A stretch of 32,000 nucleotides of DNA from Candidatus Saccharimonadota bacterium (GTDB lineage Archaea; Nanohalarchaeota; Nanosalinia; Nanosalinales; Nanosalinaceae), in assembly GCA_001761425.1 (NCBI GenBank), contig CP012986.1:1050001-1082000 (forward strand). The letters run 5' to 3'. Each line of letters begins with the position of its first letter. The stretch's first letter is position 1. The notes under the pieces were generated by a model. It ran no database searches. It had not been told where the DNA came from and saw nothing but the letters and a program-made list of their open reading frames with translations. Below, piece after piece: positions 1-32,000 of this stretch. Position numbers and translations under genes: made by a program.

Positions 1-593
1 GTTACAGTTTTGATGAGGCCTCTAATAAGCTAGAAGACGGTGACAGTATTGTTGCCAAGCCGCGGAAAGATACCTGTCAGGGCGACTGTGTTGAGCTTGT
101 GGAATCTGAGGACGAGCTTGAGAGTTATATTGACCGTGTTCTGGGAGATTCTTCGAGGGATGAGATAGAGGAGCATCTTCTGTTTGAGGAATATTTTGAG
201 ACAGGTGCCGAAGCTGATAACTCTGATATGAGGATGATCCTTCTGGACGGGGAAATCTACAGGAAGGAACGTTCAGGCGGAGATGGGATCGCGAACAACC
301 TTGATAACAATGGCAAATACGTCGAGGCCCCGGAAGCAAGTGAGGAGGAGAAGAGGCTCGCTGAGAAGACTGAAGAAATCTTCGGAGACGGTTTTTATGC
401 CGTAGATTACATAAGAGATGAAAAGGGAGATGTCAAAGTCCTGGAGAATAACGCGACACCAGGTACGAAAATAGGCGACGAGCTAGAGATTGACCTTGAT
501 AAGGCTATCGCTGGAGAGGCCTACAGCGGGAAGATGTCAGCAGAAAATGGCCTAGAGGAGTATCAAGGCCTTCAAGATGGTGTAATTATTTAA
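1..593 (+). CDS. ATP-grasp family ligase (RimK/glutathione-synthetase-like), C-terminal part; 5' end lies outside the window
   Basis: The frame is open from nt 3 to the stop at 591-593; the GTG at 99 used by the ORF track is internal. The translation shows ATP-grasp hallmarks: 'VAKPRKDTCQGDCVELV', 'DMRMILLDGEI' and 'GDGFYAVDYIRDEKGDVKVLENNATPG' (E-N metal/ATP loop followed by PG). Confidence 0.6.
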   Translation, partial: YSFDEASNKLEDGDSIVAKPRKDTCQGDCVELVESEDELESYIDRVLGDSSRDEIEEHLLFEEYFETGAEADNSDMRMILLDGEIYRKERSGGDGIANNLDNNGKYVEAPEASEEEKRLAEKTEEIFGDGFYAVDYIRDEKGDVKVLENNATPGTKIGDELEIDLDKAIAGEAYSGKMSAENGLEEYQGLQDGVII

Positions 594-629
594 ATAAGGA
601 GTAACTTGTATCATTTAGAGGTCATTAAA

Positions 630-767
630 ATGCAGTTGACAGTACAGAGCATAATGAACAGGTCTATGGAGAATCCCGACCTACTTGTGATCGGATTAGC
701 AGTAGGTTACGTACTTGCTAAAATTCAGGCTAGAAGAAGTGGAATGGGAGGCATGGGAGGCCTCTAG
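630..767 (+). CDS. small (45 aa) single-pass membrane protein, below the ORF-track size cut-off
   Basis: ATG at 630 is preceded by GAGGT (about 11 nt upstream). The translation is MQLTVQSIMNRSMENPDLLVIGLAVGYVLAKIQARRSGMGGMGGL, with one hydrophobic helix. Its stop (765-767) lies within the SD-like AGGTGAT (764-770) of the next gene (ATG 777). Confidence 0.35.
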   Translation: MQLTVQSIMNRSMENPDLLVIGLAVGYVLAKIQARRSGMGGMGGL

Positions 768-776
768 GTGATAAAA

Positions 777-1043
777 ATGGGAAAGTTTTTCACAGACCAG
801 TTCGAGCATTATATGGACAATATTGAGAACACTGTAAACGAGTTCGTATTGGTTGTCCTGTCGTTCGGAGCGATCATGGCGACACTCTACACAGTTACTA
901 ACGGCGCACAGTATGACTGGGTAAGCTTTGGACGTATACTCTTCCCATGGGTCTCGATGCTGGCACTGATGATCATAGCGAGAGAGCTCTGGCTCCTAAA
1001 CAACAAAGTCGAACACTACATTAGACAGCAGTCAGGTGAATAA
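777..1043 (+). CDS. small membrane protein (88 aa), unknown function
   Basis: The ORF track starts at GTG 768, but an SD-like AGGTGAT (764-770) sits 6 nt before ATG 777. There are two hydrophobic helices (LVVLSFGAIMATLYTV; ILFPWVSMLALMIIA). Confidence 0.55.
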   Translation: MGKFFTDQFEHYMDNIENTVNEFVLVVLSFGAIMATLYTVTNGAQYDWVSFGRILFPWVSMLALMIIARELWLLNNKVEHYIRQQSGE

Positions 1044-1048
1044 GTAGA

Positions 1049-1630
1049 GTGGCTCCAACCCCACCAGGATTCGAAGAGTTACTCGCAAGCGGAGGAGAAA
1101 TAGGCCTCTTCTCCGGGATTCTACCCTTCATTATAACCTATACGATATTCTTCTTCCTGATAAGAAGAATAGGCCTTCTGGAAGAAAACAATGACACATT
1201 TGCAGCTATCCTGGCGATCGCATTCGCATTTTACACATCAAGATTCATCATTATGAATCCGGGATATCAGCAGTTCATGCTGGATTATGTCAGCCGTATA
1301 GCCTTGATAACAATAGGCCTACTAGGACTCTTGGTAGTACTTGCGTTCGTAGGCCTGGATCTCAGCAGCGATGTTCAGGGCCTTGGATATATCATGGCCT
1401 TGATAGTCATCGTAGCGTTCACGGTCTCAGGAGGCATACCCGTCATCGCCGGTGACGGTGCACTTGGACAGGTCCAGGAGATTATCAACTGGATGATAAA
1501 CAGCGGGACGATCTGGATACTGGCAGTGCTAGGCCTGCTCGGCTGGACATTGAGAGACAGCGATGACAGTGACAGCAATGGAGGCCTTCCAGAGATCTTC
1601 AGTGCTCTTGGAAACAACAGCGAGGGATAG
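1049..1630 (+). CDS. polytopic membrane protein, unknown function
   Basis: GTG start with AGGTGA (1034-1039) 9 nt upstream. Several hydrophobic helices and an acidic C-terminal tail (DSDDSDSNGG). The N-terminal half is alignable by eye with the next ORF. Confidence 0.6.
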   Translation: MAPTPPGFEELLASGGEIGLFSGILPFIITYTIFFFLIRRIGLLEENNDTFAAILAIAFAFYTSRFIIMNPGYQQFMLDYVSRIALITIGLLGLLVVLAFVGLDLSSDVQGLGYIMALIVIVAFTVSGGIPVIAGDGALGQVQEIINWMINSGTIWILAVLGLLGWTLRDSDDSDSNGGLPEIFSALGNNSEG

Positions 1631-1636
1631 ATCAGT

Positions 1637-2128
1637 ATGGGCGCATTCGACCAGATACTGACAATCATGTGGGATATGGGGTTAAACCTCTTTTTCCCAT
1701 GGCTTGTCATCCTCGCAGTAACCTACGGCCTACTTAACAAGTACGAGGTCATCAGCGAGGAGGATGGAGTCAACGGAGCCATAGCTATCGGAGTAGCATT
1801 CCTCGGTGTTCTAGGCCTTTCAGGAACCTCAGGAATATTCACCAGCTTTGCAGCTGCCATAACTTTCGGTGTTTTCGGAGTCCTAGGCCTGATGGTCCTC
1901 ATGGCTGTCGCAGGATACGATATCACAGAACACGCTGAAGACTCGACTTCAGGATTCGCAGTATTTGCAGCCCTTATAGGACTTATCTCATTCATGGCTG
2001 TCGTTTTCAACTTTGTAGACTTCCAGCAGTGGATACCTTCAGACGCGTCAGTCTTCCAGGATGCGATAATGCCTGTACTGATACTGGTATTCCTGTTCCT
2101 GGTGATAGCAGTAACAGTCAGAGAGTAA
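1637..2128 (+). CDS. polytopic membrane protein, likely paralog of 1049-1630
   Basis: ATG lies 6 nt after the previous stop, with GAGGGA upstream. Its helix/loop layout resembles the preceding gene (FPWLVILAVTYGLLNKYEVISEEDGVNGAIAIGVAFL versus LPFIITYTIFFFLIRRIGLLEENNDTFAAILAIAFAF). Confidence 0.6.
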   Translation: MGAFDQILTIMWDMGLNLFFPWLVILAVTYGLLNKYEVISEEDGVNGAIAIGVAFLGVLGLSGTSGIFTSFAAAITFGVFGVLGLMVLMAVAGYDITEHAEDSTSGFAVFAALIGLISFMAVVFNFVDFQQWIPSDASVFQDAIMPVLILVFLFLVIAVTVRE

Positions 2129-2163
2129 AAAAGTAGATAAAAAGGAAAACATTTCCTCCACTA

Positions 2164-2169
2164 TTTTTT
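2164..2169 (+). terminator. oligo-T run downstream of the 630-2128 membrane-protein genes
   Basis: T6 run lies 36 nt after the stop at 2128, in the spacer between convergent genes. Archaeal RNA polymerase terminates at oligo-T tracts. Confidence 0.35.
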
Positions 2170-2200
2170 CTATCTTGAAAGAAGGCAGAAGAACGAAATT

Positions 2201-2210
2201 AAAGAAAAAA
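2201..2210 (-). terminator. oligo-T run (minus strand) just after the stop of the Q/N-rich gene
   Basis: The plus strand reads AAAGAAAAAA, so the minus strand reads TTTTTTCTTT, beginning 10 nt past the stop codon at 2221-2223. Confidence 0.35.
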
Positions 2211-2220
2211 CTAGAGAGGT

Positions 2221-3144
2221 TTACCAGTCTTCCATGTCCATCTCGTCCATATCATCCTGGGAAACACTGGCATCGGTCTCGATACCTCTCTCCTGTTTGA
2301 TCTCCTGGACAAGACCTGTCAGATCCCTGACATTGTCCACCAGAGATGGAAGAACCTGCTGGAAGGCCTTTTCCAGGCCTCCGATCCTTGATTCATAGTC
2401 ATCGATGTGCTGTTCGATCTCGTCCATTTTCTCTATAAACTGCTGTTGGTCCTCGTCATCTCTGACTTCCAGATCGTGTACTCTCTGCTCCAGATCCTCA
2501 AGCTCATCTTCTATAGTATCTAGCTCCATGTAAACGTTCTGGAACTCGGTTTTAACTCTCTGGAAGTTCTCGGCTACAATAGTTTCGATTAACTCCTCTA
2601 CTGCAGGGTCAACTTCTCCTGATCCTCCGCCTGCGGAATTCTCCTGTCCCTGCTGCTGGATAGGTTGCTGAACCTGCTGTTGCTGTGTCTGCTGAGGCTG
2701 TTGCTGCATACCCTGATCCTGCTGAAAGGCCTGATTATTGTTCTGAAAGTTTTGCTGCTGATTCTGCTGTTGCTGAGACTGGTTATTGTTCTGTTCGTAT
2801 CCTTGGTCCATCGGGCTTACCGCCTCCTGTTCCTGATCTGAACTGTACTGCGTAAGTGGTTGAGGCCCGTCATCCTGCTGGCCTCCTGTTGCAGAGCTTG
2901 TTACTGCGTTGTTCATCGCTCTCTGTATTTCCTGTTGGGAGTACTGTCCCTGGAGTTCCTGCATTATATCTTCGTCTGAGTATCCCTGCTGGGACATGTT
3001 CTTTACTGTGCGTTCCAGACTTCCACCGGATAGCACACTGTTGTTTTCCGAACGGCCTGACTGCTGTTGCTGATTTGCTCCTAGCGAACCTCCTCCAGAA
3101 CCGTCTTCATCGTCCTTCATTCTTCCAAACAGTTTGAACTCCAT
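2221..3144 (-). CDS. Q/N-rich low-complexity protein with acidic C-terminal coiled coil
   Basis: 307 aa ORF. GGTGAGG lies about 13 nt upstream of the ATG. Residues ~113-168 are almost pure Q/N (QNNNQSQQQQNQQQNFQNNNQAFQQDQGMQQQPQQTQQQQVQQPIQQQGQ). The C-terminal ~120 aa have heptad-like acidic repeats (ELDTIEDELEDLEQRVHDLE...). No enzymatic motif recognised. Confidence 0.7.
   Translation of the reverse strand: MEFKLFGRMKDDEDGSGGGSLGANQQQQSGRSENNSVLSGGSLERTVKNMSQQGYSDEDIMQELQGQYSQQEIQRAMNNAVTSSATGGQQDDGPQPLTQYSSDQEQEAVSPMDQGYEQNNNQSQQQQNQQQNFQNNNQAFQQDQGMQQQPQQTQQQQVQQPIQQQGQENSAGGGSGEVDPAVEELIETIVAENFQRVKTEFQNVYMELDTIEDELEDLEQRVHDLEVRDDEDQQQFIEKMDEIEQHIDDYESRIGGLEKAFQQVLPSLVDNVRDLTGLVQEIKQERGIETDASVSQDDMDEMDMEDW
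2641..2808 (-). repeat. CAG/CAA (plus strand CTG/TTG) trinucleotide-rich low-complexity tract encoding the Q/N domain
   Basis: Direct reading shows ctgctgctgg...ctgctgttgctgtgtctgctgaggctgttgctgc...ttgctgctgattctgctgttgctg. Confidence 0.8.
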
Positions 3145-3197
3145 AAAGTTTCTACCTCACCTTCCTATCGAAACTGTAGGTTTTCGAAAACATATTG

Positions 3198-3629: not shown

Positions 3630-3635
3630 CCTATC

Positions 3636-3645
3636 TTTTAATTTA
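3636..3645 (+). promoter_or_regulatory. TATA-like element for the pilus operon, within a 33-bp divergent spacer
   Basis: TTTTAATTTA is centred about 23 nt upstream of ATG 3663, consistent with a leaderless transcript. A second AT-rich element (AATAATAA, 3656-3663) could serve the divergent minus-strand gene. Confidence 0.35.
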
Positions 3646-3662
3646 GAAACCCCCGAATAATA

Positions 3663-5954
3663 ATGCTGGGTGTAAAGAAAGAGATGGTCGATAGAGGTCA
3701 GGGAGATCAGGGTGTATTCGAATACGAATATGATGAAGAGACATCAACCGTAAGAGTCAACACACTCGGCTCAATGTACGGAGCAAGCATAGAGGACTAC
3801 CCAGAAGTCATGGCCCGTGTCATAAACATCCTACAGGAGGTACCCAACGCAGAATCCGTTATACTAGCTGAATCAAGAGAATACGAATACGGAGAGGACC
3901 AGGTAAAGCTCCTAAGAGAAATAGCCAACGCTATACAGGAAATCTCCCGCCAGGGATACATCTCACAGGACGTCAAGACAGAAAAATGCGACCAGATCTA
4001 CAGCGAACACCTGCCAGAAGTCCAGAAAATGGTTTTCAACAAACTCCGAATGGACCCTGTAGGAGCATACGTACAGATCAAAAGAAAGGAACGCCACCTC
4101 AGACAGAAGATGGAAGATGGCTACCCACAGCAACAGAGATGCTGTAAATACTTTCTTCAGGACGTGGTCAAACCTGTCAAAGAAAGAATAGAACAATGTA
4201 AATTTATCCAGCAAGCCCAAGACCAGATCACAGGCCACCACGTCGGAGAAAGAGAGATCTACAGAGAATACTTCCACCCTCTGGTAAGGCCTAACTTCAT
4301 GCTTACCAAGTTCATGTCCCTTCCTCCAGAAAGAGGAGAGGAGATGGAACGCTACGAAATGGATAACATAGACGCAGAAGTCACAGTATACGATGTTCCT
4401 CACAAGACAAGGCCTGTCTACCACATCGATCCACCGGAATTCAATCTTTCAGAAGAAAAATACAACATTCTGGACGCAGCGAGACGTTTTATGGCTTCAC
4501 ACGATCCTCAGGAAGGAGAGTTCGCGGAGCCTGACAAGATGCGTGATGTCTTCCAAAACATTGGACGCGATATGCTGAGAGATGTCGCAAACCAGATGGG
4601 GGTAAGACTGGAAAACGATGAGATGGAACAGCTTGCAAATATACTGAACAGATACACTTCAGGCCTTGGAGTACTGGAACTTTTACTCTCCGATCCGAAG
4701 ATCCAGGACGTCTACATCAACTCCCCGATCGGTGACTCGCCTATCTTCATCTCACATCAGGACTACGAAGAATGTGAGACTAACCTGATACCCACGAAAG
4801 AAGAGGCAGAGTCATGGGCTACACGTTTCAGGATCCAGTCAGGAAGGCCTCTAGATGAAGCGAATCCGGTACTGGACACAGAGACTGAGGTTGAAGGAGG
4901 TAGAGCTCGTGTAGCTGTTATACAGGAAAATCTTTCGCCTGAAGGCCTTGCATTCGCTTTTCGTAGACATCGTTCACGTGCCTGGACTCTGCCTCTGTTC
5001 ATCAACAATGGGATGCTTTCGCCGCTTGCAGCAGCTTTGATATCGTTTATTGTGGATGGTAACCGTTCTGTCCTGTTTGCAGGTACAAGAGGCGCAGGTA
5101 AGTCATCGCTTCTGTCTGCTTCGATGCTCGAGATCATGAAGAGCCACAGAATTGTAACTGTAGAAGATACCCTGGAGTTGCCTGTGCCCCAGATGAATGA
5201 TCTTGGTTACAATATTGAAAGGATGAAGTCCCGTTCTGTTATTACACAGGTGGAAAACGAGATGGGAGCGGATGACGCGATCCGTACCTCTCTCAGATTG
5301 GGTGACTCTGCCCTTGTCATTGGAGAGGTTCGTTCCGAAGAAGCCCAGGCCCTTTACGAGGCAATGCGTGTTGGAGCCGTTGCTAACTTCGTCGGAGGTA
5401 CTATCCACGGCGAAGACGCTTACTCTGTATTCGACCGTGTTGTCAACGACCTGGGAGTTCCTCGTACCTCCTTCAAGGCGACAGATATTGTTGTACAGGT
5501 TAACAAGATTGAAAGTCCTGGAGGTATGGAAACATACCGTCGTGTAACCGGTATCACCGAAGTTCGCAAGGAATGGGAAGACGACCCGCAGGAGGAAAAT
5601 GCTTTCGTGGACCTGATGCGGTACGACAGCAATAAAGACAAGCTTGTGCCGACAGATACTCTGATCAACGGAGAATCTCTCATACTCGGCAGGATCGCCG
5701 AAAACATCAAGGAATGGAAGAACAACTGGGAGGCAGTCTGGAACAATATCCAGTTGAGAAAAGACACAAAAAAGGCGATAGTCGATAAATACAAAGAAAC
5801 AGGAAATGATGAACTGCTTGAAGCAGAATTCGCAGTTAAGGCAAACCAGCAATTCCACATCATAGCTGAAAAAGTCAACGAAGAATACGGGGAACAGGAT
5901 AGAGAAAGGATATACAACAGATGGACGGAATGGTTGGATCAACAGGTGAAGTAA
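3663..5954 (+). CDS. type IV pilus/archaellum-family secretion ATPase (FlaI/PilB/GspE/VirB11 superfamily) with a long N-terminal region
   Basis: 763 aa. Walker A 'FAGTRGAGKSSLLSA' (nt ~5082-5105), Asp box 'IVTVEDTLEL', Walker B 'SALVIGEVRSEEAQA' and His box 'GGTIHGED' appear in the canonical order of secretion ATPases. It is followed immediately by a polytopic platform gene. Confidence 0.9.
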   Translation: MLGVKKEMVDRGQGDQGVFEYEYDEETSTVRVNTLGSMYGASIEDYPEVMARVINILQEVPNAESVILAESREYEYGEDQVKLLREIANAIQEISRQGYISQDVKTEKCDQIYSEHLPEVQKMVFNKLRMDPVGAYVQIKRKERHLRQKMEDGYPQQQRCCKYFLQDVVKPVKERIEQCKFIQQAQDQITGHHVGEREIYREYFHPLVRPNFMLTKFMSLPPERGEEMERYEMDNIDAEVTVYDVPHKTRPVYHIDPPEFNLSEEKYNILDAARRFMASHDPQEGEFAEPDKMRDVFQNIGRDMLRDVANQMGVRLENDEMEQLANILNRYTSGLGVLELLLSDPKIQDVYINSPIGDSPIFISHQDYEECETNLIPTKEEAESWATRFRIQSGRPLDEANPVLDTETEVEGGRARVAVIQENLSPEGLAFAFRRHRSRAWTLPLFINNGMLSPLAAALISFIVDGNRSVLFAGTRGAGKSSLLSASMLEIMKSHRIVTVEDTLELPVPQMNDLGYNIERMKSRSVITQVENEMGADDAIRTSLRLGDSALVIGEVRSEEAQALYEAMRVGAVANFVGGTIHGEDAYSVFDRVVNDLGVPRTSFKATDIVVQVNKIESPGGMETYRRVTGITEVRKEWEDDPQEENAFVDLMRYDSNKDKLVPTDTLINGESLILGRIAENIKEWKNNWEAVWNNIQLRKDTKKAIVDKYKETGNDELLEAEFAVKANQQFHIIAEKVNEEYGEQDRERIYNRWTEWLDQQVK

Positions 5955-8144: not shown

Positions 8145-8148
8145 AAAG

Positions 8149-8328: not shown

Positions 8329-8355
8329 AAACAATCGAGAACAAGTTGGTTATCA

Positions 8356-9462: not shown

Positions 9463-9527
9463 AAAAACATGTCAGAAACTCTAAAAACAATTACTAACAG
9501 CAGAAAAGGCCTTCCAGGTGCTTTACC

Positions 9528-12035: not shown

Positions 12036-12110
12036 AAGGCCTTGAAGGCAGCGGTAGAAAACACTTAAATTAGAGAAAAGCGTAATGAATATTCAGAGAA
12101 GGATTACAAG

Positions 12111-12323
12111 GTGATTTCTTCGAACTGGAAAAAGTCAAAGGGACAGGGCGGTATGCCTGTCAAGATCATAGTAGGCCTTCTAATCGCAATTATAATCGGC
12201 GTATTCATGCTTATGTTCCTCCTACCTACGATCAGGGCACAGGAACAGGCAGCTAGCTGTACAGGTATCCTGAGAAGTCTGGGAACTATACTGGCGGACA
12301 TGACCGGTGTATCACTATGCTGA
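12111..12323 (+). CDS. small pilin-like protein (70 aa)
   Basis: GTG start, with ATG 12153 as an alternative. 'KSKGQ|GGMPVKIIVGLLIAIIIGVFMLMFLL' matches the [KR]G[Q] plus hydrophobic-helix pattern of archaeal class III signal peptides. It overlaps the next gene by 7 nt. Confidence 0.6.
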   Translation: MISSNWKKSKGQGGMPVKIIVGLLIAIIIGVFMLMFLLPTIRAQEQAASCTGILRSLGTILADMTGVSLC

Positions 12324-14068
12324 AGACGAGGAAAGGTATCGGTACCGGAACGATAATGAAGCTGGTTCTCGCTCTGATGACTGCCTCACTTTTCATTGGA
12401 GCAGGTACAGTAGGAGACCTTGGATCAGCTTTAGGAGAGGGATTTTCCAGCTTGGGAGAGAGCACAGACTACAGAATTGACCTAGGAGATAATGGAGCAG
12501 AAAAGCTATCCCAAGCAGCTAGATTTGTGAGGATGAGAGCTGGCAATGATGGATGTGCTGAAGATTCCAACTCAGGCCCTTATTCCAGTGTACCGAGTTA
12601 CATAGAGGACGAAGGTTTTTCTGCACTCAGAGATAGCTACATAGGAGAATATCCTACATGTGAGTCCTCGACATCTACCCTTTCAAGAGGTATACAGGGA
12701 GGAATTCAGGAACTGGGACAGGATCAGGAAGGAATATATTCCAGAGTTGCTTTTGAGGTTAAGGAAGAGTTTACTATAACTTCTAACGGAGACACTTGGC
12801 TTGAAGGTGCAGGAGATGACAGCAAGGGAATAAGAGCCGTCGCAGAAGGATCACTAGAATCAAACACTCTTGATAGCTGTGGCGTGGATGCCTTGGATCG
12901 AGCAATTCAGACCGGAGCTGCAGGAGCAGTCCTAGGGGCCAGTACAGGAATAGGGGTAGGAGCGGTTGGAGGAGCAACGATAGGTTTCGTATCTGGAGGT
13001 GTTGGTAATGCAATAGCTGGAGCGGAATTCGTTGGGACAGATGATAAATATGTAATATTTGTTAGACCCGACCAGATGGATCAGAGAACAAACGGCTGGA
13101 TTAACGACGCTGAAAGAGCTAACGGGGACAGTTTCGGATATGGAAACAGATTATACTGCCATGGATTGGGTGATGAAATCAATCTAGATGGACTTCTTAG
13201 TGAAGAACATTTAACCAGATCCCCACTAAGAGCCGCCTATATAGAGTATTACGGTAGTGATGTGCGTTTCCAGTTCTGCCCCGGAGATGAAGGATATATT
13301 CAGATGAACAAAGGAAAGCCTCAGAACGATGCTGAAGCAGGAGAAGACTTACTTGGAGGTGCTCACAAGTTCCCATTTATCGTCATCACTGATAAAGGAG
13401 ACAACTGTGGGGATACGAGCGCTAATGTAGAGGAAAACGTGGCAGACGATGTCAGTCCAACAGGAAACATGTTCTTTGTAGCGATAGACAGCAGTAGCAG
13501 TTACGTTGACTCCAATCCAAACTCCTGGAGTCTGCATGACGACAGTGAAGGCGCAAACGTTGATGGAGCCGTGAGCGAAGGAGGTGCGACAGACGACATT
13601 GAAGCACCTTATGACAACCTTTGCAGAGTAGGTCTGCTTGAAGAAGACGGTAATATCGGAGATGATGGCGATGGCTATGTCGATTATGTAAAGGGAACTG
13701 TTATAGAGAAAGACGGTACTTTCCCTGAGTTAGGAAGCAGTTCAATTCAGTATCGTGCAGAAGAAGTCGCTGTAGAAGAGGAAGGAGGTAATCCAGTAAA
13801 TGATCCTGAAAACACCTATCACGTATACCAGCATCTTGTTAACGACGGATTTGATGGACAGAGCATTAGTGGCGACTACTCTTACCTGCAAGGAGCACAG
13901 TCACCTCACAACCTTGAGCTTAAAGGAGATATGCTCTGTGCGAACACAGCAGGCTTTTCATACTCCAAATGGGTCATGTGTGATCCATCTGCGCCTACAA
14001 AGGAAATCACCGCAGACGGAACCACATACGAATGTAACGAAGGAGAAGGTGACTGGAGAATACAATGA
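12317..14068 (+). CDS. giant pilin-like surface protein (583 aa); paralog of 9528-12035
   Basis: 'MLKTRKG|IGTGTIMKLVLALMTASLFIGA'. Blocks shared with the 835-aa protein include 'FVR.RAGNDGC', 'DSY.G.YP.C', 'EGIYSRV.FEV', 'TWLE', 'CPGD.GYIQMNK' and 'FP.I.I'. It has an internal Gly/Ala-rich insertion and a divergent acidic C-terminal half. Confidence 0.8.
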   Translation: MLKTRKGIGTGTIMKLVLALMTASLFIGAGTVGDLGSALGEGFSSLGESTDYRIDLGDNGAEKLSQAARFVRMRAGNDGCAEDSNSGPYSSVPSYIEDEGFSALRDSYIGEYPTCESSTSTLSRGIQGGIQELGQDQEGIYSRVAFEVKEEFTITSNGDTWLEGAGDDSKGIRAVAEGSLESNTLDSCGVDALDRAIQTGAAGAVLGASTGIGVGAVGGATIGFVSGGVGNAIAGAEFVGTDDKYVIFVRPDQMDQRTNGWINDAERANGDSFGYGNRLYCHGLGDEINLDGLLSEEHLTRSPLRAAYIEYYGSDVRFQFCPGDEGYIQMNKGKPQNDAEAGEDLLGGAHKFPFIVITDKGDNCGDTSANVEENVADDVSPTGNMFFVAIDSSSSYVDSNPNSWSLHDDSEGANVDGAVSEGGATDDIEAPYDNLCRVGLLEEDGNIGDDGDGYVDYVKGTVIEKDGTFPELGSSSIQYRAEEVAVEEEGGNPVNDPENTYHVYQHLVNDGFDGQSISGDYSYLQGAQSPHNLELKGDMLCANTAGFSYSKWVMCDPSAPTKEITADGTTYECNEGEGDWRIQ

Positions 14069-14310
14069 GACTAGTAAAAACCCTGAAATCATCTCTAGAG
14101 AAGAATATTAAAACAGTAAAAAATGTCACAAAATCTATGAAAACAATCGGCAGGACGTTCAAAGGACAGAACTTTTCGATCAAAACCATGGCACTGATAG
14201 TCCTGGGAATAATGGTGGTTGTACTGGTCTACGGAGCCTTCAGCGGATGGTTCGACAACGTTGTGAACAACTTCACCGGGAATATAAACTACCCACAACC
14301 GAGAAGTTAG
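14065..14310 (+). CDS. pilin-like protein (81 aa)
   Basis: ATGA start/stop overlap with the previous gene. '...GRTFKGQ|NFSIKTMALIVLGIMVVVLVYGAF'. An internal ATG at 14137 would give a more typical short leader. Confidence 0.6.
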   Translation: MRLVKTLKSSLEKNIKTVKNVTKSMKTIGRTFKGQNFSIKTMALIVLGIMVVVLVYGAFSGWFDNVVNNFTGNINYPQPRS

Positions 14311-14323
14311 AGGAGGAAAAAGT

Positions 14324-14500
14324 ATGATAGAAGACAGGAAAGGTATAAACTCGACGATCGCCCTCATTATTACGATAGCGGTAGGCCTCATGGTTGTGGT
14401 GATAATAATCTCGATACTTAATACAAACACCGGGTTCCTGGAGAGCTTTGCAAAGGATGGAGTTGACGTGAGCCTTTGGGGCGGGGGCGGAGGATCATGA
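14324..14500 (+). CDS. small pilin-like protein (58 aa), below the ORF-track cut-off
   Basis: Strong SD GAGGAGG lies 7 nt upstream. 'MIEDRKG|INSTIALIITIAVGLMVVVIIISIL...', ending in GGGGGS. Its stop overlaps the next ATG (ATGA). Confidence 0.55.
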   Translation: MIEDRKGINSTIALIITIAVGLMVVVIIISILNTNTGFLESFAKDGVDVSLWGGGGGS

Positions 14501-20149: not shown

Positions 20150-21616
20150 CTATGGTTCTTCAAGCCCGAGAATATCGCTGATAAGGCCTTCTATCTCCCA
20201 GATCTCGTTTTCCTCAAAGCTGAATTCCTGATCTACGTTAATCTGTATTAGAGGGACTGGGTTCAGGGTATGGGAAGTATTTGGACTATCTTTTTTTCCC
20301 ATGTCTTCGCAGTTACCGTGGTCAGATGTTACAAGCATGGAGTAATCTGTTTCCCGTATTTTCTCGGTTAGACGGCCGATGTTTCTGTCCACGGCCTCTA
20401 CAGCTTCGATAGTAGCTTCTATCTCTCCTGTATGTCCGACGAGATCGCAGTTAGCGAAGTTTAACATTATTAAATCTTTTTCTCCCTTTTCCAGGGCTTC
20501 AAGCACTACTTCACAGATGTCATCGGCATGCATCTCCGGTTTCTGATCGTAGGCCTTGATCTTGTCGCTTTTAACGAAGTGACGTTGTTCGTGTTCGAAT
20601 TCAAGTTCTCTCTGGCCGTTGAAGAAGAATGTGACGTGAGGCCTTTTCTGGCTCTCCGCAACGCGTAACTGGCTGAGGCCTTTGTCCTCTATTTTTTCTC
20701 CTAAAGTGTTTTTTACTATTTGTTTTTCGAATATGGCAGGGTTTTCGATTTCGTGTTCGTATCGGAACATTGAGGTGAATTTAGGATGTACTGGTTCCTC
20801 GTATTTGTCCGGATCGACTTCTTCCACCAGTTCTTCTTCTATCTGTCTTTCCCTGTCTGCCCGGAAGTTGTAGAAGATGACTTCGTCTTCATCAGTCATT
20901 CCTTCGTATCCTTCAGCGACCGACGGCTGTATGAAGTAATCGTAATCGCCTTCTTCATAGGTTTTCTCTACTGCTTCTCCTGGATCAGAGAATTCGAAGC
21001 CTTCTCCTCTCGCCATCGCCCTGTAGGCCTTGTACGTCCGGTCCCAGTTATGGTCTCTGTCCATCGAGTAGTAACGGCCCATAACCGTTGCGATCTCACC
21101 GCCGAACTCTTCCGTCCATTCCTCGATCTGATCCAGAAACTTCTCCGCACTCTTCGGAGAAACATCTCTGCCATCCGTGAAGCAGTGGATCTTCACGTCC
21201 ACATCGTACTCTGAAGAGGTTTCAAGCAAGGCCTTTAAATGGTTGATATGGCCGTGAATCCCTCCATCAGAGATTATCCCGGCGAGATGAACCTTAGTAC
21301 CGTTTTCCTCCGCTCTCTCAAGTGCTTCTCTCAAGGCCTTTTTTTCGCTTAGTTCACTGTTTTCTATGGCTTGGTTTATTCTGGTTAGTCGCTGTGGTAT
21401 TCTTCGTCCTGCTCCTAAGTGGAGATGGCCGACCTCTGAGTTACCTGTGTATCCTTCGGGAAGGCCTACCGCGTTTCCGGAAGCGTCTAACTTGGCGAAC
21501 CCGTTTCTGGCCATGAGTTTCCCAAGGTTGGGTGTGTCTGCCTGCTTGAATGCGTTGCCTTCGTTTTCCTCTCTTAATCCGACGCCGTCCATCACTACTA
21601 GAAGTACCGGTTTCAT
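20150..21616 (-). CDS. gpmI: 2,3-bisphosphoglycerate-independent phosphoglycerate mutase
   Basis: 'MKPVLLVVMDGVGL...GNAF..ADTPNL...LDASGNAVGLPEGYTGNSEVGHLHLGAGR' and 'VTSDHGNCE' match the iPGM family. The track start at 21652 is GTG, whereas homologs begin at the MKP start (ATG 21616). Confidence 0.9.
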   Translation of the reverse strand: MKPVLLVVMDGVGLREENEGNAFKQADTPNLGKLMARNGFAKLDASGNAVGLPEGYTGNSEVGHLHLGAGRRIPQRLTRINQAIENSELSEKKALREALERAEENGTKVHLAGIISDGGIHGHINHLKALLETSSEYDVDVKIHCFTDGRDVSPKSAEKFLDQIEEWTEEFGGEIATVMGRYYSMDRDHNWDRTYKAYRAMARGEGFEFSDPGEAVEKTYEEGDYDYFIQPSVAEGYEGMTDEDEVIFYNFRADRERQIEEELVEEVDPDKYEEPVHPKFTSMFRYEHEIENPAIFEKQIVKNTLGEKIEDKGLSQLRVAESQKRPHVTFFFNGQRELEFEHEQRHFVKSDKIKAYDQKPEMHADDICEVVLEALEKGEKDLIMLNFANCDLVGHTGEIEATIEAVEAVDRNIGRLTEKIRETDYSMLVTSDHGNCEDMGKKDSPNTSHTLNPVPLIQINVDQEFSFEENEIWEIEGLISDILGLEEP

Positions 21617-21640
21617 AACAAGTAGTTGGGTTTTGGGACA

Positions 21641-21649
21641 TTTTATTAA
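21641..21649. promoter_or_regulatory. shared AT-rich TATA-like element between divergent gpmI and the coiled-coil gene
   Basis: TTTTATTAA lies 24 nt from the gpmI ATG (21616, minus) and 22 nt from ATG 21672 (plus). Confidence 0.45.
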
Positions 21650-21671
21650 CACAGCCCTGTAATTCTCAGTT

Positions 21672-24401: not shown

Positions 24402-24419
24402 AGGCCTTCCTGAAAAATT

Positions 24420-25442
24420 CTAGACGAAGCTGTCCAGGCCTGACTGTCTTGACTCCAGGGCTTTTTCCAGGTCTTCAAGACCTGATTCTACTCTTTCCTC
24501 GGAGAAATCATGGTCAGTGACAAGGATTTCCTTTACTTTCTCGCTGTCCAGTTCTCCTTCTTCGTATTCCGGATCCATCACCGGCGGATTCTTGAAGAAT
24601 TCCAGGATCGCTTCTGGATCAGCCTGAGACTCCCACTCAACTTTCTCATCACCGATCAAGGCCTGAAAATTATCGTATTCTTTAACCAGTTTCAGCGCTG
24701 TCTTGGGGCCTATCCCATGGATTCCATCGGGGTTGAAGTCTGTTCCCATCAGGATGCCCATCCAGACAAGTTTCTCATGAGTTATCTCCAGGTCGCCAAC
24801 GACTTCTTCCAGAGTTATACGCTCCTGTGAAACTTCTTTCCTTCCGCCTCCAGAAGTCTTTCTTGTTTTCCGCGTGGTAAGGTTCCTGACCATCGTATCA
24901 GCACCGAACAAAAGACAGTCCCAGTCCTGAGAACCAACAGCATAAACTTCCCCCTGAGAGGCCATATAAGCTGCCTGAGCCTCTCCCTCACTCGGCGCCT
25001 GAACATAGGAGATACCCATCGCATCCAGAAGTCTCTTCGACTCCTCAATCATGTCCCCAGTCAGCTTTGAACTCTGGGTAGCCTTCGAATAGGCCTCAGA
25101 GATCTTTCCCTCTTCCTTCAGTTCCTTCCATTTCTCACGTGCCTCCTCACGCTTCTTCCTTCTCTTCGTCGTTTCCTTTTCCTTCAGTTCAGGTGCTTCA
25201 CCGTCAAAAACATATACAGGCCTGATATTATTCTCCAGAAGATTGATGTTGCGGTAGAAAAGGCCTGAAAGATGAGAAGTGATCTCTCCGGAAGAATCTT
25301 TCAAAGGCGTTCCATCTCTCTGCCGGATAATACTCAGGAACTGGTAGAGTGTATTCATCGCGTCGACAGCGACTTCTTTATCGTTTAAGTCTTCAAAGCT
25401 TATCTCTTCTGGCTCGACGAGTTCCCCAAGGTTTACTCCCAT
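24420..25442 (-). CDS. fen: flap endonuclease 1 (FEN-1)
   Basis: 'MGVNLGELV....DLNDKEVAVDAMNTLYQFLSIIRQRDGTPLKDSSGEITSHLSGLFYRNINLLENNIRPVYVFDGEAPELK' and 'GILMGTDFNP.GI.GIGPKTALKLV' match the family. C-terminal PIP-box-like 'QSGLDSFV'. Confidence 0.92.
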   Translation of the reverse strand: MGVNLGELVEPEEISFEDLNDKEVAVDAMNTLYQFLSIIRQRDGTPLKDSSGEITSHLSGLFYRNINLLENNIRPVYVFDGEAPELKEKETTKRRKKREEAREKWKELKEEGKISEAYSKATQSSKLTGDMIEESKRLLDAMGISYVQAPSEGEAQAAYMASQGEVYAVGSQDWDCLLFGADTMVRNLTTRKTRKTSGGGRKEVSQERITLEEVVGDLEITHEKLVWMGILMGTDFNPDGIHGIGPKTALKLVKEYDNFQALIGDEKVEWESQADPEAILEFFKNPPVMDPEYEEGELDSEKVKEILVTDHDFSEERVESGLEDLEKALESRQSGLDSFV

Positions 25443-29214: not shown

Positions 29215-29237
29215 GTTTTTGATCCGATCTTTCTATT

Positions 29238-29921: not shown

Positions 29922-29968
29922 AACACCCCCGGTTCCAGCAAACAATTTAAATAGAGAGGCAGAACGTT

Positions 29969-30280: not shown

Positions 30281-30289
30281 AGAAAGAAA

Positions 30290-30757
30290 ATGACTTTATC
30301 CAAAGGCCTAAGAAAAAGACTTGATACACAGGGATTCCTAGACGTTGAAACCAAAAGTACAGCACGCTGGCTGAAATTCTCCCCACTGATGTGCGCTATA
30401 GGTTTTGCACTGGGAACATATCTGCAGAGCCCTGCCCTGCTATTCACAATGGCACTTTTCGCCGTAGCAGGCCTTTCATTCCACCATACTCCTTTTGACT
30501 GGCTTTACCTTTACGCCGTAAAGCCTGTGATCAATGGACCAGAACTTCCCAAGAGGCCTGCACCCGCGAGATTCGCCTGCTTCGTAGCTGTTGTCTGGGG
30601 TTCAGTCACTGCTTCAGCCTTCCTCATCGAATACAACACGATAGCCACGGTACTCGGTATCGCTTTGACCGGCGCGGCGACCTTGATGGGCACAGTTAAC
30701 TACTGCATAGCCTCCAGGTTCTGGAGAATAATTTACGGATGGCCCGACCAAGAATGA
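30290..30757 (+). CDS. membrane protein, possibly DUF4395-like
   Basis: Four hydrophobic segments. 'PKRPAPARFACFVAVVWG' and the C-terminal 'NYCIASRFW' resemble the DUF4395 layout from memory. Weak call. Confidence 0.45.
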   Translation: MTLSKGLRKRLDTQGFLDVETKSTARWLKFSPLMCAIGFALGTYLQSPALLFTMALFAVAGLSFHHTPFDWLYLYAVKPVINGPELPKRPAPARFACFVAVVWGSVTASAFLIEYNTIATVLGIALTGAATLMGTVNYCIASRFWRIIYGWPDQE

Positions 30758-30776
30758 TGGACAAAGAATCAAGGAG

Positions 30777-30784
30777 TTTAAAAA
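30777..30784 (+). promoter_or_regulatory. TATA box of aIF-1A
   Basis: TTTAAAAA lies 23 nt upstream of ATG 30808. Confidence 0.5.
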
Positions 30785-30807
30785 CTTCATCCGTCTAAAC
30801 CTTTCCT

Positions 30808-31122
30808 ATGAGCGAAGATAATGAAGAACAGGAAGTAGGAAGGGTAAGGAAGCCGAACAACGATGAAGTACTGGGCGTAGTCCTCAGAAAGGAAGGAGGC
30901 GGAAAATACCGTATCTACTGTACAGACGGCGAAGAAAGAATCTGCCGCATCCCAGGATCAAAGAAAAGAGGCCTATGGGTCAAAAGAGACAACGTAGTAC
31001 TCGTAGAACCATGGGACATCCAGGGCGACGAAAAAGGAGACATCGTCGAAAGCTACAGCAACGCAGAGACCCGCTGGCTTGAAGACCACGACTTCCTGGA
31101 CGAAATCAAGGAATTCCTGTAA
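30808..31122 (+). CDS. eif1a: translation initiation factor aIF-1A
   Basis: 'VRKPNNDEVLGVVLRKEGGGKYRIYCTDGEERICRIPGSKKRGLWVKRDNVVLVEPWDIQGDEKGDIVESY' matches the S1-like OB fold of aIF-1A/eIF1A. Confidence 0.9.
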   Translation: MSEDNEEQEVGRVRKPNNDEVLGVVLRKEGGGKYRIYCTDGEERICRIPGSKKRGLWVKRDNVVLVEPWDIQGDEKGDIVESYSNAETRWLEDHDFLDEIKEFL

Positions 31123-31173
31123 AAATTCTAAAGGCCTTCAAGTCCTCAAATCCACCATATTCTGCTCAAACGT

Positions 31174-32000
31174 TTACACAAAGTCGGGGACAGCTGAGGA
31201 ATCAGAACCGTTTTCAAACACTTCTAAATACACTTCAGGACCTGAAACCTTTTCCCCGGCCATAAGAGAAGCAGCAACTAGATCATAACCTCTGCTCTCG
31301 TCTGAATCTACGTTCTCTACAGCTTCAGAGGCCTTCTGATCGGAAAGACCTATCTCACGCATATCCTGCTCTGAAACGCCCGAAGTCTCTGAAAGAGCCT
31401 GCGCATAACCGTTTACAACGGTACTCGCCGCCCTCATATCATGAAGCTCTTCCCAGTCAAGGCCTCTGAAATCCTGTTCGGCGAAATTCTCCAGAGCACT
31501 GATCTTCGAAGCCCTTTCAAGGCCTTCTGTCATCGGAGGGACATTCTTTACTCTCTGGTTCGTCCAGGTCGGAGATTCAGACTCATGCTGGTACCTGTGG
31601 AATAGCTCAGACGCAAGAGTATCATAGGCCTGTCTCTCGGGAAGTCTATCCTTGCTGACACCTATCTTTCTAGAATAAGGATTGTAACCGGCTTCTGCGT
31701 TCGAGGCCGTCGCCTTCGAGTTAAAATATTCACAGGCCAGGGCGCTGGCAGCGAGAGCTTCACCAGCAACCGAAGGTTCGAAAGCAGCGACGACCGAAGG
31801 AGCTATCAGGCCTGAACCAAAAATCTTTACAGCCTGTCTATCAGCTCTGGGAGTAAGGACTTCACGTATCGACATATCGTAGAGAATGTCATCCTTAAAC
31901 TCCTCACGTACGTCTCCAGTATCCTGATCCAGGAGATCATCGTAAAAATCCATTAAGAAATCAGCTGCCTCATAGATATCATCTTTCGAAGCCTCAACCC
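31174..32000 (-). CDS. acidic hypothetical protein; may extend beyond the window
   Basis: The ORF track starts at the ATG at 31953, but the same frame stays open to nt 32000 (..VEASKDDIYEAADFL-MDFYDD..). No family recognised. Confidence 0.5.
   Translation of the reverse strand, partial: VEASKDDIYEAADFLMDFYDDLLDQDTGDVREEFKDDILYDMSIREVLTPRADRQAVKIFGSGLIAPSVVAAFEPSVAGEALAASALACEYFNSKATASNAEAGYNPYSRKIGVSKDRLPERQAYDTLASELFHRYQHESESPTWTNQRVKNVPPMTEGLERASKISALENFAEQDFRGLDWEELHDMRAASTVVNGYAQALSETSGVSEQDMREIGLSDQKASEAVENVDSDESRGYDLVAASLMAGEKVSGPEVYLEVFENGSDSSAVPDFV

Follow-up and report, generated by a model that had tools for sequence, protein, structure and literature searches.

AGGCCT, a putative highly iterated palindrome of HIP type with an on/off distribution among sister clades of nanohaloarchaea

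The hexamer AGGCCT occurs 118 times in the window, by which we mean the whole stretch of 32,000 nucleotides that was analysed and that comes from a nanohaloarchaeon (DPANN). The copies are dispersed over positions 1..32000 at a density of 3.7 per kb. An initial annotation had counted about 118 by eye, and the exact count and coordinates agree with it, as do the example positions 4287, 517, 566, 24402, 12037, 18351, 29173 and 31132. The copies start at the following positions:

16, 517, 566, 758, 1102, 1171, 1315, 1351, 1531, 1582, 1813, 1885, 2364, 2375, 2727, 4287, 4410, 4661, 4845, 4943, 5984, 6051, 6173, 6287, 6990, 7100, 7277, 7480, 7874, 8057,
8298, 8457, 8520, 8596, 9429, 9507, 9712, 10714, 10805, 11084, 11381, 11762, 12037, 12173, 14383, 14513, 14691, 15690, 15927, 15990, 16521, 16532, 16630, 16989, 17354, 17384, 18351, 19983, 20137, 20184,
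20551, 20639, 20676, 21025, 21229, 21334, 21462, 21874, 22039, 22163, 22324, 22517, 22735, 22972, 23173, 23192, 23357, 23420, 23783, 23831, 24402, 24436, 24659, 25091, 25218, 25261, 25455, 25670, 25731, 26164,
26453, 26820, 26900, 27347, 27782, 27864, 28049, 28125, 28182, 28403, 28592, 28649, 28727, 28975, 29083, 29173, 30019, 30096, 30304, 30469, 30554, 30969, 31132, 31329, 31460, 31520, 31626, 31808

Individual copies and genes referred to below are these:

517..522, plus strand: phase 1 example (xAG GCC Txx), in gene 99-593
566..571, plus strand: phase 2 example (xxA GGC CTx, X-Gly-Leu)
2364..2380, unstranded: closest pair, starts 11 bp apart; further close pairs at 16521/16532 and 23173/23192
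4287..4292, plus strand: phase 0 example (AGG CCT = Arg-Pro), in the pilus ATPase gene 3663-5954
12037..12042, unstranded: post-stop copy, 1 nt past the stop of an 835-aa gene
12173..12178, plus strand: seemingly intergenic copy, in a V-G-L context of an uncalled 70-aa ORF (12111-12323) for a hydrophobic peptide
12179..14382: longest stretch free of AGGCCT, 2.2 kb, covering a 583-aa ORF (12317-14068)
14383: copy in an uncalled 58-aa ORF (14324-14500)
20150..21652, minus strand: iPGM gene (8 copies), in which orthologous sites are best compared
24402..24407, unstranded: copy in the 18-bp spacer of convergent genes, abutting the stop codon of 22629-24401
24420..25442, minus strand: FEN-1 gene with 5 copies
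12037, 18351, 20137, 24402, 29173 and 31132: starts of the post-stop copies

The annotation put the expectation at 5 to 8 copies and the excess above tenfold, and about 7.5 copies are indeed expected; its G+C estimate of about 45% was close to the measured 46.5%. Dinucleotide-preserving shuffles of the window (n=100) contain 7.67 +/- 2.67 copies (maximum 14). AGGCCT ranks first among the 4096 hexamers in the window, ahead of GAAGAA (69), and the second most common hexamer palindrome is TTCGAA (19). A maximal-order Markov model expects 105.6 copies, an observed/expected ratio (O/E) near 1 (1.1), but this test is circular, because AGGCC (136) and GGCCT (139) are almost wholly made up of AGGCCT; when motif copies are masked, models of orders 1-3 expect 6.1, 7.8 and 7.5, which upholds the excess. 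Most GGCC tetramers sit in AGGCCT, as had been noted (118 of 179). GGCC outside AGGCCT is not enriched (271 versus about 254 expected), and nothing therefore points to an inner core with flanks, such as CGATCG forms within HIP1. In the window the copies share no conserved flank apart from a weak preference for R at -1 and for Y at +1, and there are no tandem repeats.

Copies occur in all three codon phases, which the annotation had also claimed: 15 are read as AGG CCT, 25 as xAG GCC Txx and 62 as xxA GGC CTx. Synonymous-codon shuffles yield 1.7, 4.6 and 10.7, respectively (total 17.0 +/- 3.8, maximum 33), so the excess is not confined to one phase or dipeptide, each phase being 5-9 fold over the shuffles. 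Codon-order shuffles yield 7.4 +/- 2.7. Among genic contexts that could synonymously be written as AGGCCT, 102 of 141 (72%) are so written, including 15 of 16 Arg-Pro dipeptides, 25 of 40 [KEQ]-Ala-[FSYCLW] contexts and 62 of 85 X-Gly-Leu contexts. The 583-aa ORF within the longest motif-free stretch offers just two such contexts, and uses neither (0/2). Outside the CDS model there are 16 copies (5.5/kb versus 3.5/kb in genes), two of which (12173, 14383) fall within the small uncalled ORFs, whereas 25455 and 25670 lie in the promoter regions of divergent genes, ahead of the start codons. In six of 36 genes the stop is followed by a copy no more than about 10 nt away (expected 1.6, P = 0.006). 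A DNA-level process has thus put AGGCCT at about three-quarters of the positions that proteins permit, and also into non-coding DNA, especially just after stop codons.

Relatives were fetched with FEN-1 as the marker, and are called "have" if motif-rich and "have-not" if motif-poor. We compared nine have loci (133 kb) with thirty have-not nanohaloarchaeal loci (412 kb) and with outgroups, and the pooled O/E for AGGCCT is 15.9, 1.10 and 0.83, respectively. Within matching orthologous segments, a fraction of 0.74 of the contexts is realised in have loci and 0.08 in have-not loci. Permissive peptides are also more frequent in the same genes (1.89 versus 1.30 per 100 aa), and this surplus is consistent with a process that also alters amino acids. 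Where peptides are conserved, have-nots draw on every synonymous codon, whereas the three have clades have all arrived at AGGCCT. For example, conserved V-G-L, K-A-L, K-A-Y and R-P of iPGM are spelled with AGGCCT in all three have clades and with AGGACT, AGGCGT, AAGCCT and similar words in have-nots; the S-G-L, R-P and E-A-Y contexts of FEN-1 show the same contrast. The post-stop tendency recurs in other have genomes (8/50) versus have-nots (2/202). The annotation's view that the force acts on DNA, not on protein, stands on these observations: all phases are used, non-coding DNA is enriched, contexts are 72% saturated, and relatives encode the same peptides without the motif. The mechanism that it listed first did not fare as well, as described below.

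The three have clades are each well supported in the tree (bootstrap 200/200, 182/200 and 200/200). Monophyly of all have genomes is found in 0/200 replicates, and in 181/200 a have-not clade is the sister group of one of the three have clades. MAGs assembled in unrelated studies show the trait as well, and another archaeal genome of this type (L184) carries 63 copies in 14.9 kb of a housekeeping region unrelated to the FEN-1 neighbourhood. The process is genome-wide and lineage-specific: some clades of nanohaloarchaea have it switched on, and their sister clades have it switched off. Such a patchy distribution is typical of mobile restriction-modification (R-M) or methyltransferase genes. Palindrome counts also differ sharply among lineages (ACGT 0 versus 50, CTAG 2 versus 70, GATC 11 versus 77, GGCC 2 versus 11), and palindrome-specific R-M pressure in this group is demonstrably intense and fast-changing. 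Type II restriction-site avoidance likewise concerns 4-6 bp palindromes in a patchy, lineage-specific manner, and several relatives avoid ACGT, CTAG, GATC or GGCC to an extreme degree, but AGGCCT has the opposite sign, being enriched 15-fold where restriction would predict avoidance.

Spacing in the window is slightly clumped rather than even (CV 1.22); neither regular spacing nor a long-range spacing rule was detected there. Contexts 50 to 400 bp from the next site are converted at a steady 80-91% at any distance. At 6-49 bp from another site, 20 of 38 window contexts are converted, versus 82 of 97 at 50-399 bp (p = 2.5e-4), and the same distance classes at other loci give 63/95 versus 225/283 (p = 0.012); close pairs are scarcer than independent conversion predicts. 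The density is well over the ceiling of roughly 1/kb in range-limited models. The process acts site by site. It also acts on all alternative bases: at N in A-GGN-CT, have loci carry C121/A6/G4/T8 versus 16/21/19/19 (C/A/G/T) in have-nots, and at N in AG-GCN-T they carry C79/A5/T1/G0 versus 14/25/11/21 (C/A/T/G). At degenerate positions A, G and T are thus lost about equally, transversions included. Variants one base off the motif are over-represented only at its two outer positions (39 versus 25.9, P = 0.01).

By analogy, AGGCCT appears to be a highly iterated palindrome of HIP type, comparable to HIP1 (GCGATCGC) and the "alternate HIPs" of cyanobacteria (Elhai 2015, PMC4390886; Xu, Lawrence and Durand 2018, PMC5861425). 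Both HIP1 and AGGCCT are short G+C-rich palindromes, at least 15-fold over-represented, that occupy every reading frame and non-coding DNA without conserved flanks, are common to genomes above background at individual sites, and are sporadically present or absent among related genomes; HIP1 variants one base off are likewise in excess at outer positions (PMC4390886). However, HIP1 is an octamer of Bacteria, occurs roughly once per kb and is near-universal in its phylum, whereas AGGCCT is a hexamer of Archaea, reaches about 3.7/kb, lacks an enriched inner core and has a patchy distribution inside a single order-level group. Over-represented short words tied to DNA repair or recombination also include Chi sites and similar skewed, orientation-dependent oligomers, but Chi-type words are asymmetric, strand-biased and found roughly once per 5 kb, while AGGCCT is symmetric and exceeds that density more than tenfold. 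No description of the AGGCCT array turned up in the literature searched. In Archaea, AGGCCT would be the equivalent of cyanobacterial HIP1, which still awaits an explanation, and its on/off sister lineages offer a setting in which the cause can be sought.

The reading that we favour, tentatively and at somewhat less than an even chance, is a HIP-like element kept by a mobile AGGCCT-specific recogniser, putatively methyltransferase-linked, that fixes and retains sites singly. The switch would be a horizontally mobile gene or gene pair for a dimeric AGGCCT-reading protein, for which an orphan or R-M-derived DNA methyltransferase is the likeliest candidate. Coupled to local methyl-directed correction, the putative enzyme would have a mismatched or damaged site restored to the methylated parental sequence. 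Sites would be born by ordinary mutation and almost never lost, in a one-way ratchet or "lock-in", and therefore contexts with four to five of six bases fixed by the protein code would fill first; a roughly 20-fold lower loss rate would suffice for an occupancy of about 87% at single degenerate positions. The mild interference below 50 bp counts against pure lock-in, and fits the footprint of a bound protein or functional redundancy. DPANN genomes are poor in repair genes, and we know of no site-directed "lock-in" repair enzyme in archaea. The leading idea is a methyltransferase-linked process broader than the Vsr type. Cyanobacterial alternate HIPs co-occur with a methyltransferase of matching specificity (PMC4390886), whereas searches for a methyltransferase, restriction enzyme or Vsr-like gene found none in about 150 kb of have-type DNA, nor any match among the window's unannotated proteins.

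It seems doubtful that AGGCCT serves as a tag by which DNA is recognised as self in uptake or recombination, as with Neisseria DUS and Pasteurellaceae USS and in the role proposed for methylated HIP1. In that case DNA with AGGCCT, possibly methylated, would have an advantage in binding, import or recombination from one nanohaloarchaeal cell to another, and site-creating alleles would spread by molecular drive. DUS and USS are also dense (one per kb or more), genome-wide and lineage-specific, accumulate at permissive coding positions and after genes, alter peptide content, and are explained by molecular drive rather than per-site fitness. Biased-uptake drive removes alternatives equally, fills permissive contexts and reshapes the proteome, as observed here, and the preference for unconstrained DNA right after genes agrees with it; the on/off distribution could track receptor specificity. 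Natural transformation of Synechococcus 7002 increases more than 100-fold with methylated HIP1 (preprint), and HIP1 abundance co-varies with DNA-transfer genes (preprint), both of which count in favour of a tag. Among the genes of the window are those for a type IV pilus-like ATPase and platform protein, but several genes of this locus have homologues in motif-poor as well as motif-rich relatives, and its proximity is therefore no evidence. The clumped spacing also counts against a tag, as does conversion undiminished by other sites 50-400 bp off, since a per-fragment benefit should saturate. Known uptake sequences are asymmetric, 9-12 nt long and more evenly spaced, and a 6-bp palindrome discriminates weakly by comparison. 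To our knowledge, neither an uptake sequence nor an uptake bias is known from archaea, which weighs against this proposal.

Unlikely, too, is an array of binding sites for a dimeric protein of nucleoid organisation, segregation, or replication/repair loading, held at a selected density and with the protein present in have lineages only. A palindrome suits a symmetric dimer, and the short-range interference fits a footprint or local redundancy. Orthologous sites are shared between have clades above background (31-71% versus 12-20%), which is expected equally under selection. HIP1 was interpreted in a similar way by Xu et al., who argued for selection rather than repair bias (PMC5861425). However, a symbiont with small populations could hardly sustain about 4,000 sites per 1.1-Mb genome, each with its own advantage, sister lineages manage without the enrichment, and no candidate protein was found in the window. 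Near-complete filling of permissive contexts, including pairs 11 bp apart, resembles drive more than a dosage optimum.

The mechanism listed first in the annotation, classical very-short-patch repair, is very unlikely. An m5C methyltransferase at (A)GGCC(T) would act with a Vsr-type endonuclease that turns T:G to C:G in near-cognate sites; the target contains methylatable cytosines, and a precedent exists in E. coli, where Dcm methylates the palindrome CCWGG and Vsr, a repair enzyme directed to that site, shapes how often it occurs. That system corrects T:G mismatches only, at the expense of CTWGG and CCWAG, and changes CCWGG abundance little, whereas the effect here is 15-fold. Because all alternative bases drop about equally, transversions being favoured as much as transitions, and C-to-T neighbours are not depleted (AGGTCT/AGACCT O/E 0.90, AGGCTT/AAGCCT O/E 0.98), T:G repair is not supported. 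Leftover variants one base off need a transition rather than a transversion more often in have loci (24:17) than in have-nots (76:112), the opposite of its prediction.

It is highly improbable that AGGCCU, which a palindromic motif places in every mRNA irrespective of the coding strand, works as the target of an RNA-binding or RNA-processing factor. Strand independence is compatible with such a role, because the motif is palindromic, and the post-stop copies lie in probable 3' UTRs, but RNA function does not require a palindrome, the two divergent promoter copies precede start codons, and all codon phases and gene positions are used without positional pattern. Finally, the dominance of phase 2 (Gly-Leu, 62 of 102 genic copies) and the maximal-order Markov ratio are what an ordinary excess would have in its favour, be it a by-product of codon or dipeptide preference, of base composition, of a dispersed repeat family or of faulty assembly. 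Its probability is negligible: every phase exceeds the synonymous-codon shuffles, non-coding DNA is enriched, relatives encode the same peptides motif-free, conserved flanks and tandem repeats are lacking, two independent assemblies are identical, MAGs of unrelated studies share the trait, and the Markov ratio is circular.

The 32,000-base window (G+C content 46.5%) contains exactly 118 copies of AGGCCT, which makes it the most frequent of all 4096 hexamers; the second, GAAGAA, occurs 69 times, and the next palindromic hexamer, TTCGAA, 19 times against an expectation of ~12 to 17. Dinucleotide-preserving shuffles (n = 100) yielded 7.67 ± 2.67 copies, with a maximum of 14. The estimate in the initial annotation of ~118 copies and a more than 10-fold excess is confirmed by the exact count, against ~7.5 expected, and all coordinates quoted there were correct when checked. 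Most GGCC tetramers (118 of 179) do lie within AGGCCT, as it had stated. The Markov comparison that it proposed had a divided outcome. A maximal-order model expects 105.6 copies (O/E 1.1), but its pentamer predictors, AGGCC (136 copies) and GGCCT (139 copies), derive almost wholly from the hexamer itself, and we therefore rejected this background as circular. With the AGGCCT copies masked, backgrounds of order 1, 2 and 3 expect 6.1, 7.8 and 7.5 copies, and the excess stands.

Our gene model comprises 36 genes covering 91% of the window, with an ORF cut-off of 80 amino acids. The 102 genic copies use all three codon phases, as first claimed: 15 are read as AGG CCT, 25 as xAG GCC Txx and 62 as xxA GGC CTx. 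Every phase exceeds the number obtained by shuffling synonymous codons within each gene, a check suggested in the initial annotation that preserves protein and codon usage; these shuffles gave 1.7, 4.6 and 10.7 copies, respectively, and 17.0 ± 3.8 in total (maximum 33). Codon-order shuffles gave 7.4. The most telling statistic is the saturation of permissive contexts, which are peptide positions where AGGCCT can be written synonymously. Arg-Pro dipeptides are written AGG CCT in 15 of 16 cases, and the hexamer is present in 62 of 85 X-Gly-Leu contexts and 25 of 40 [KEQ]-Ala-[FSYCLW] contexts, so that 102 of the window's 141 permissive positions carry it. Stretches free of AGGCCT (e.g., 12179-14382, Alba and NMD3) are mostly genes without a permissive context. 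Outside the gene model there are 16 further copies, at a density of 5.5/kb versus 3.5/kb in genes, of which two represent V-G-L contexts of small uncalled ORFs.

A large type IV pilus-like locus occupies positions 3663-17999 and includes the following genes:
3663-5954, T2SSE-type ATPase
5955-8144, T2SSF-like platform protein
After position 8144 it continues with ~10 kb of genes without a family match, among them genes for 835-aa and 583-aa proteins, and it is partly conserved in motif-rich and motif-poor relatives alike. Two ORFs within this locus, at 12111-12323 (+; 70 aa) and 14324-14500 (+; 58 aa), fall below the 80-aa cut-off. Each encodes one strongly hydrophobic, pilin-like helix and holds one AGGCCT in a V-G-L context.

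Genes in the window include Alba, aIF-1A, aEF-1beta, FEN-1, NMD3, iPGM, tRNA-Arg, and the pilus-like ATPase and platform protein. Relatives retrieved with FEN-1 from a collection of species-representative genomes are Nanohaloarchaeota, and AGGCCT density among them is bimodal, at 2.8 to 5.1/kb in loci L003-L006, L033, L036 and L037, and at most 0.9/kb elsewhere. Pooled, the nine motif-rich loci, which include L184 (see below), carry 507 copies against 31.9 expected (O/E 15.9), whereas thirty nanohaloarchaeal loci without an excess, termed motif-poor here, carry 105 against 95.7 (O/E 1.10); a comparison with related genomes had been recommended initially, and it sustains the observation. Outgroup loci have an O/E of 0.83. 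The two independent assemblies of the window's locus, L001 and L002, do not differ and hence offered no polymorphism to compare. In motif-poor lineages, we looked for another hyper-abundant palindrome, and none exceeded ~5-fold. Viral and metagenome collections were also scanned for triple-AGGCCT clusters. The matches listed were mostly chance occurrences or tandem arrays, and the sole genuine further case among them is L184, a contig from a hypersaline assembly, with 63 copies in 14.9 kb and 29 of 30 500-bp bins occupied. Its genes (MetRS, another class-I aaRS, aRF1 and SufB/D) are unrelated to the FEN-1 neighbourhood, and the trait thus reaches another chromosomal region in another genome of this type.

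A tree was built from concatenated proteins (up to 2,084 residues; 200 bootstrap replicates), and a single-gene tree was also made. Motif-rich genomes fall into three clades (bootstrap 200/200, 182/200 and 200/200) whose joint monophyly was recovered in 0 of 200 replicates, and one of these clades is sister to a motif-poor clade in 181 of 200. The trait has been gained or lost repeatedly.

Codon alignment of the window's sites with other motif-rich genomes, including a distant clade, revealed AGGCCT at 31 to 71% of them, against a background hexamer identity of 12 to 20%; the figure is 0 to 15% in motif-poor loci for which five or more sites could be aligned. At conserved V-G-L, S-G-L, K-A-Y, E-A-Y, R-P and R-G-L peptides, motif-rich clades converge on AGGCCT, and the codons of motif-poor relatives cover the whole synonymous range (e.g., AGGACT, AGGGCT, AGGTCT, AGGCGT, AGGCAT, CGGCCT and AAGCCT). 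Within the same orthologous segments, motif-rich genomes carry AGGCCT at a fraction of 0.74 of their permissive contexts (0.64 to 0.84 in each) versus 0.08 in motif-poor ones, and permissive peptides number 1.89 versus 1.30 per 100 aa. This surplus is consistent with a pressure that also alters some amino acids; iPGM has Arg-Pro in the window versus Ile/Lys-Pro in most motif-poor relatives.

The base changes themselves are informative about the process. At the degenerate position of A-GGN-CT, the counts are C121/A6/G4/T8 in motif-rich genomes versus 16/21/19/19 in motif-poor ones, and at that of AG-GCN-T they are C79/A5/T1/G0 versus 14/25/11/21. A, G and T are removed alike, and motif-poor orthologues differ from AGGCCT by transversion as often as by transition. 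The very-short-patch repair considered in the initial annotation would, in its classical T:G form, deplete C-to-T derivatives and favour T-to-C (A-to-G) changes exclusively. Across the whole window, one-mismatch neighbours of AGGCCT are not depleted, and the deamination products AGGTCT/AGACCT and AGGCTT/AAGCCT have O/E values of 0.90 and 0.98. Together with the equal loss of the three bases, this is a strong argument against this form of repair. One-off variants at the outer positions that keep GGCC are weakly enriched (39 versus 25.9, P = 0.01); variants at the inner positions occur as often as expected.

Bases flanking AGGCCT exhibit no consensus except a weak preference for a purine at -1 and a pyrimidine at +1, and frequencies at -8 to -2 and +2 to +8 are close to background. 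No tandem repeats were found in the window, and with such flat flanks we rejected a dispersed (REP or MITE-like) repeat family. Spacing is slightly clumped rather than regular (CV 1.22 versus 0.98 ± 0.09 for random placement in the 32-kb window). Permissive contexts whose next site is 50 to 400 bp away are converted in 80 to 91% of cases at any such distance, and this falls to 53% at 6 to 49 bp (20/38 versus 82/97, p = 2.5e-4); the drop below 50 bp recurs more weakly in eight other motif-rich loci (63/95 versus 225/283, p = 0.012). An impression that isolated contexts are never converted (0 of 6 in the window) was dropped when other loci gave 13 of 21. The first ~10 nucleotides after a stop codon are favoured, with copies at 6 of 36 window genes (expected 1.6, P = 0.006), and 8/50 in other motif-rich loci, against 2/202 in motif-poor ones. 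Because the post-stop copies of different motif-rich loci are not at the same genes, they seem to fill unconstrained DNA and not to mark a conserved element.

The process is therefore one that acts on DNA, genome-wide and site-autonomously, that can be switched between lineages, and that reads the full hexamer without regard to the type of base change. These properties exclude codon or dipeptide effects, repeats and artefacts; a force on DNA and not on protein, as originally proposed, is upheld by both the shuffles and the relatives.

Among described phenomena, HIP1 and the alternate HIPs, the highly iterated palindromes of cyanobacteria, come closest. Hyper-abundant palindromes of this type were recognised three decades ago, and repair bias, selection on chromosome structure and a DNA-uptake signal are still debated as their cause. 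AGGCCT shares their hyper-abundance, frame independence and conservation. HIPs are G+C-rich palindromes over-represented at least ~15-fold, comparable to 118 versus 7.5 in the window; they occur in any frame and in non-coding DNA without a longer repeat, as does AGGCCT (all phases, 14 to 16 non-coding copies, flat flanks). Orthologous sites are likewise conserved above background, although here convergent filling is inseparable from inheritance. In HIPs, one-off variants depart from expectation chiefly at the two outermost bases (PMC4390886); AGGCCT tends in this direction, but the effect is weak. Alternate HIPs co-occur with a DNA methyltransferase of matching specificity (PMC4390886), and Xu et al. 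(2018, PMC5861425) describe a periodic distribution of HIP1 with a scale of 10-90 kb. Compared with HIP1, AGGCCT is denser, is a shorter word and occurs in another domain of life. Our literature search found no AGGCCT in nanohaloarchaea, no archaeal HIP-like word and no AGGCCT over-representation.

The symmetry of the 6-bp word and its switching between sister clades suggest that the sequence reader is dimeric and horizontally mobile; R-M-type methyltransferases are the obvious class. We infer as the preferred model a methyl-directed local correction, in which a damaged or mismatched site would be returned to the methylated parental sequence. Sites would originate through ordinary mutation and then be locked in. 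Gain at mu/3 with loss reduced ~20-fold would yield the ~87% occupancy observed at a single degenerate position, and contexts with four or five of the six bases fixed by the protein would fill first. Elhai's ratchet for HIPs (PMC4390886) is close to this lock-in model, but AGGCCT has no enriched inner core, and its density of 3.7/kb is above that model's ceiling of ~1/kb.

One main rival explanation is that AGGCCT is an uptake or recombination tag, a role now suggested for HIP1 in its methylated form. Such a tag would be in keeping with the loss of all alternative bases alike and with the altered proteome, and AGGCCT resembles uptake sequences as a dense word that fills permissive positions (72-74%) and shifts peptides (1.89 versus 1.30). 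However, uptake sequences are asymmetric words of 9-12 nt that are spaced more evenly than random, whereas AGGCCT is a 6-bp palindrome without an extended consensus, is clumped (CV 1.22) and exhibits no saturation by neighbouring sites. Homologues of the neighbouring pilus-like locus occur in motif-rich relatives as well as in motif-poor ones. The palindrome and the interference below 50 bp would also suit the other main rival, a putative array of selected binding sites, yet thousands of sites would then be under selection while sister lineages do without them.

A more far-reaching reading, which we regard as improbable, is that a previously unrecognised archaeal system on a mobile module entered at least two to three clades. 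AGGCCT could then serve in DNA uptake or self-recognition, as the first such sequence in archaea, and be read in methylated form when nanohaloarchaeal cells exchange DNA; alternatively, it could reflect a new kind of site-directed lock-in repair, with a methyltransferase-marked hexamer being restored after any mismatch. Restriction-site avoidance is contradicted by a 15-fold enrichment.

The ~150 kb of motif-rich DNA analysed yielded no DNA methyltransferase and no restriction enzyme or Vsr-like nuclease. Phmmer and a motif scan of all ORFs in the compared loci had a sole match, the m5C methyltransferase in a provirus-like block (L015:190-3677) of a motif-poor nanohaloarchaeal MAG:
L015:190-1746 (-), terminase-like gene
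L015:2191-3183 (-), m5C DNA methyltransferase
L015:3165-3677 (-), ParB-like gene
No relatives of this terminase were found in the viral collection. A search of the protein collection with M.HaeIII, whose sequence was verified against PDB 3UBT, had only bacterial homologues (73-99% identical) among its best 120 matches. PADLOC and NCBIfam, applied to the window's unannotated proteins, gave coiled-coil matches only. For published nanohaloarchaeal methylomes, GDGCHC is the sole motif reported.

Several motif-rich and motif-poor loci avoid particular 4-mer palindromes: ACGT (0 versus 49.7 expected in L008; 2 versus 49.6 in L025), CTAG (2 versus 70 in L033; 5 versus 49 in L020), GATC (11 versus 77 in L017) and GGCC (2 versus 11 in L024; 20 versus 51 in L035, where AGGCCT is at 0 versus 4.8). 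Avoidance this extreme and lineage-specific suggests that restriction pressure in nanohaloarchaea is intense and shifts quickly.

AGGCCT represents an independent HIP-like occurrence in another domain of life, and since it fills about three quarters of codon-permitted positions, the effect surpasses that of HIP1. The genomes are only ~1 Mb, and because clades rich in the motif have motif-free sister clades, the determinant should be findable by simple gene-content comparison; population data could exploit the same contrast to separate drive from selection. The main value of the system is that such sister clades open the long-standing HIP question to direct testing. AGGCCT is also a strong marker for binning nanohaloarchaeal contigs, may help to link viruses or plasmids to nanohaloarchaeal hosts, and distorts the codon-usage and amino-acid statistics of motif-rich genomes.

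Other elements were encountered in the window and the scans. A 590-aa coiled-coil protein adjoining FEN-1 (22629-24401, +) is conserved in relatives and has weak, sub-threshold matches to models of SMC, an archaea-specific SMC-related protein, Rad50 and JetC/LmuB. No family match was obtained for a 340-aa ORF (19040-20062, -) that separates the Alba neighbourhood from iPGM, and it has no detectable homologue in related loci, including close relatives that cover the interval; as it also carries a single AGGCCT, it may be a recent acquisition.

Three matches from the cluster scans were rejected as further cases. L109 (IMGVR_UViG_2791354938_000002, 1-11862) is a tailed HK97-type prophage with terminase, portal, protease, capsid and tape measure genes; its 26 dispersed AGGCCT and 86 GGCC in 11.9 kb (G+C 42.6%) reflect a general GGCC enrichment. 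L153, an IMG/VR "viral" contig, carries at 6700-8480 a telomere-like TTAGGG satellite whose 73-bp unit includes AGGCCTAGGCCT and which dominates cluster-pattern searches, and L159 is a 90-bp tandem array. Among the relatives, the record of L007 (JBLGBK010000001.1) bears the name of a bacterium, "MAG: Colwellia polaris". It contains ~20 syntenic nanohaloarchaeal genes, including FEN-1 (75% identical), Alba, iPGM, NMD3, aIF-1A and the pilus-like locus, and appears to be mislabelled or mis-binned.
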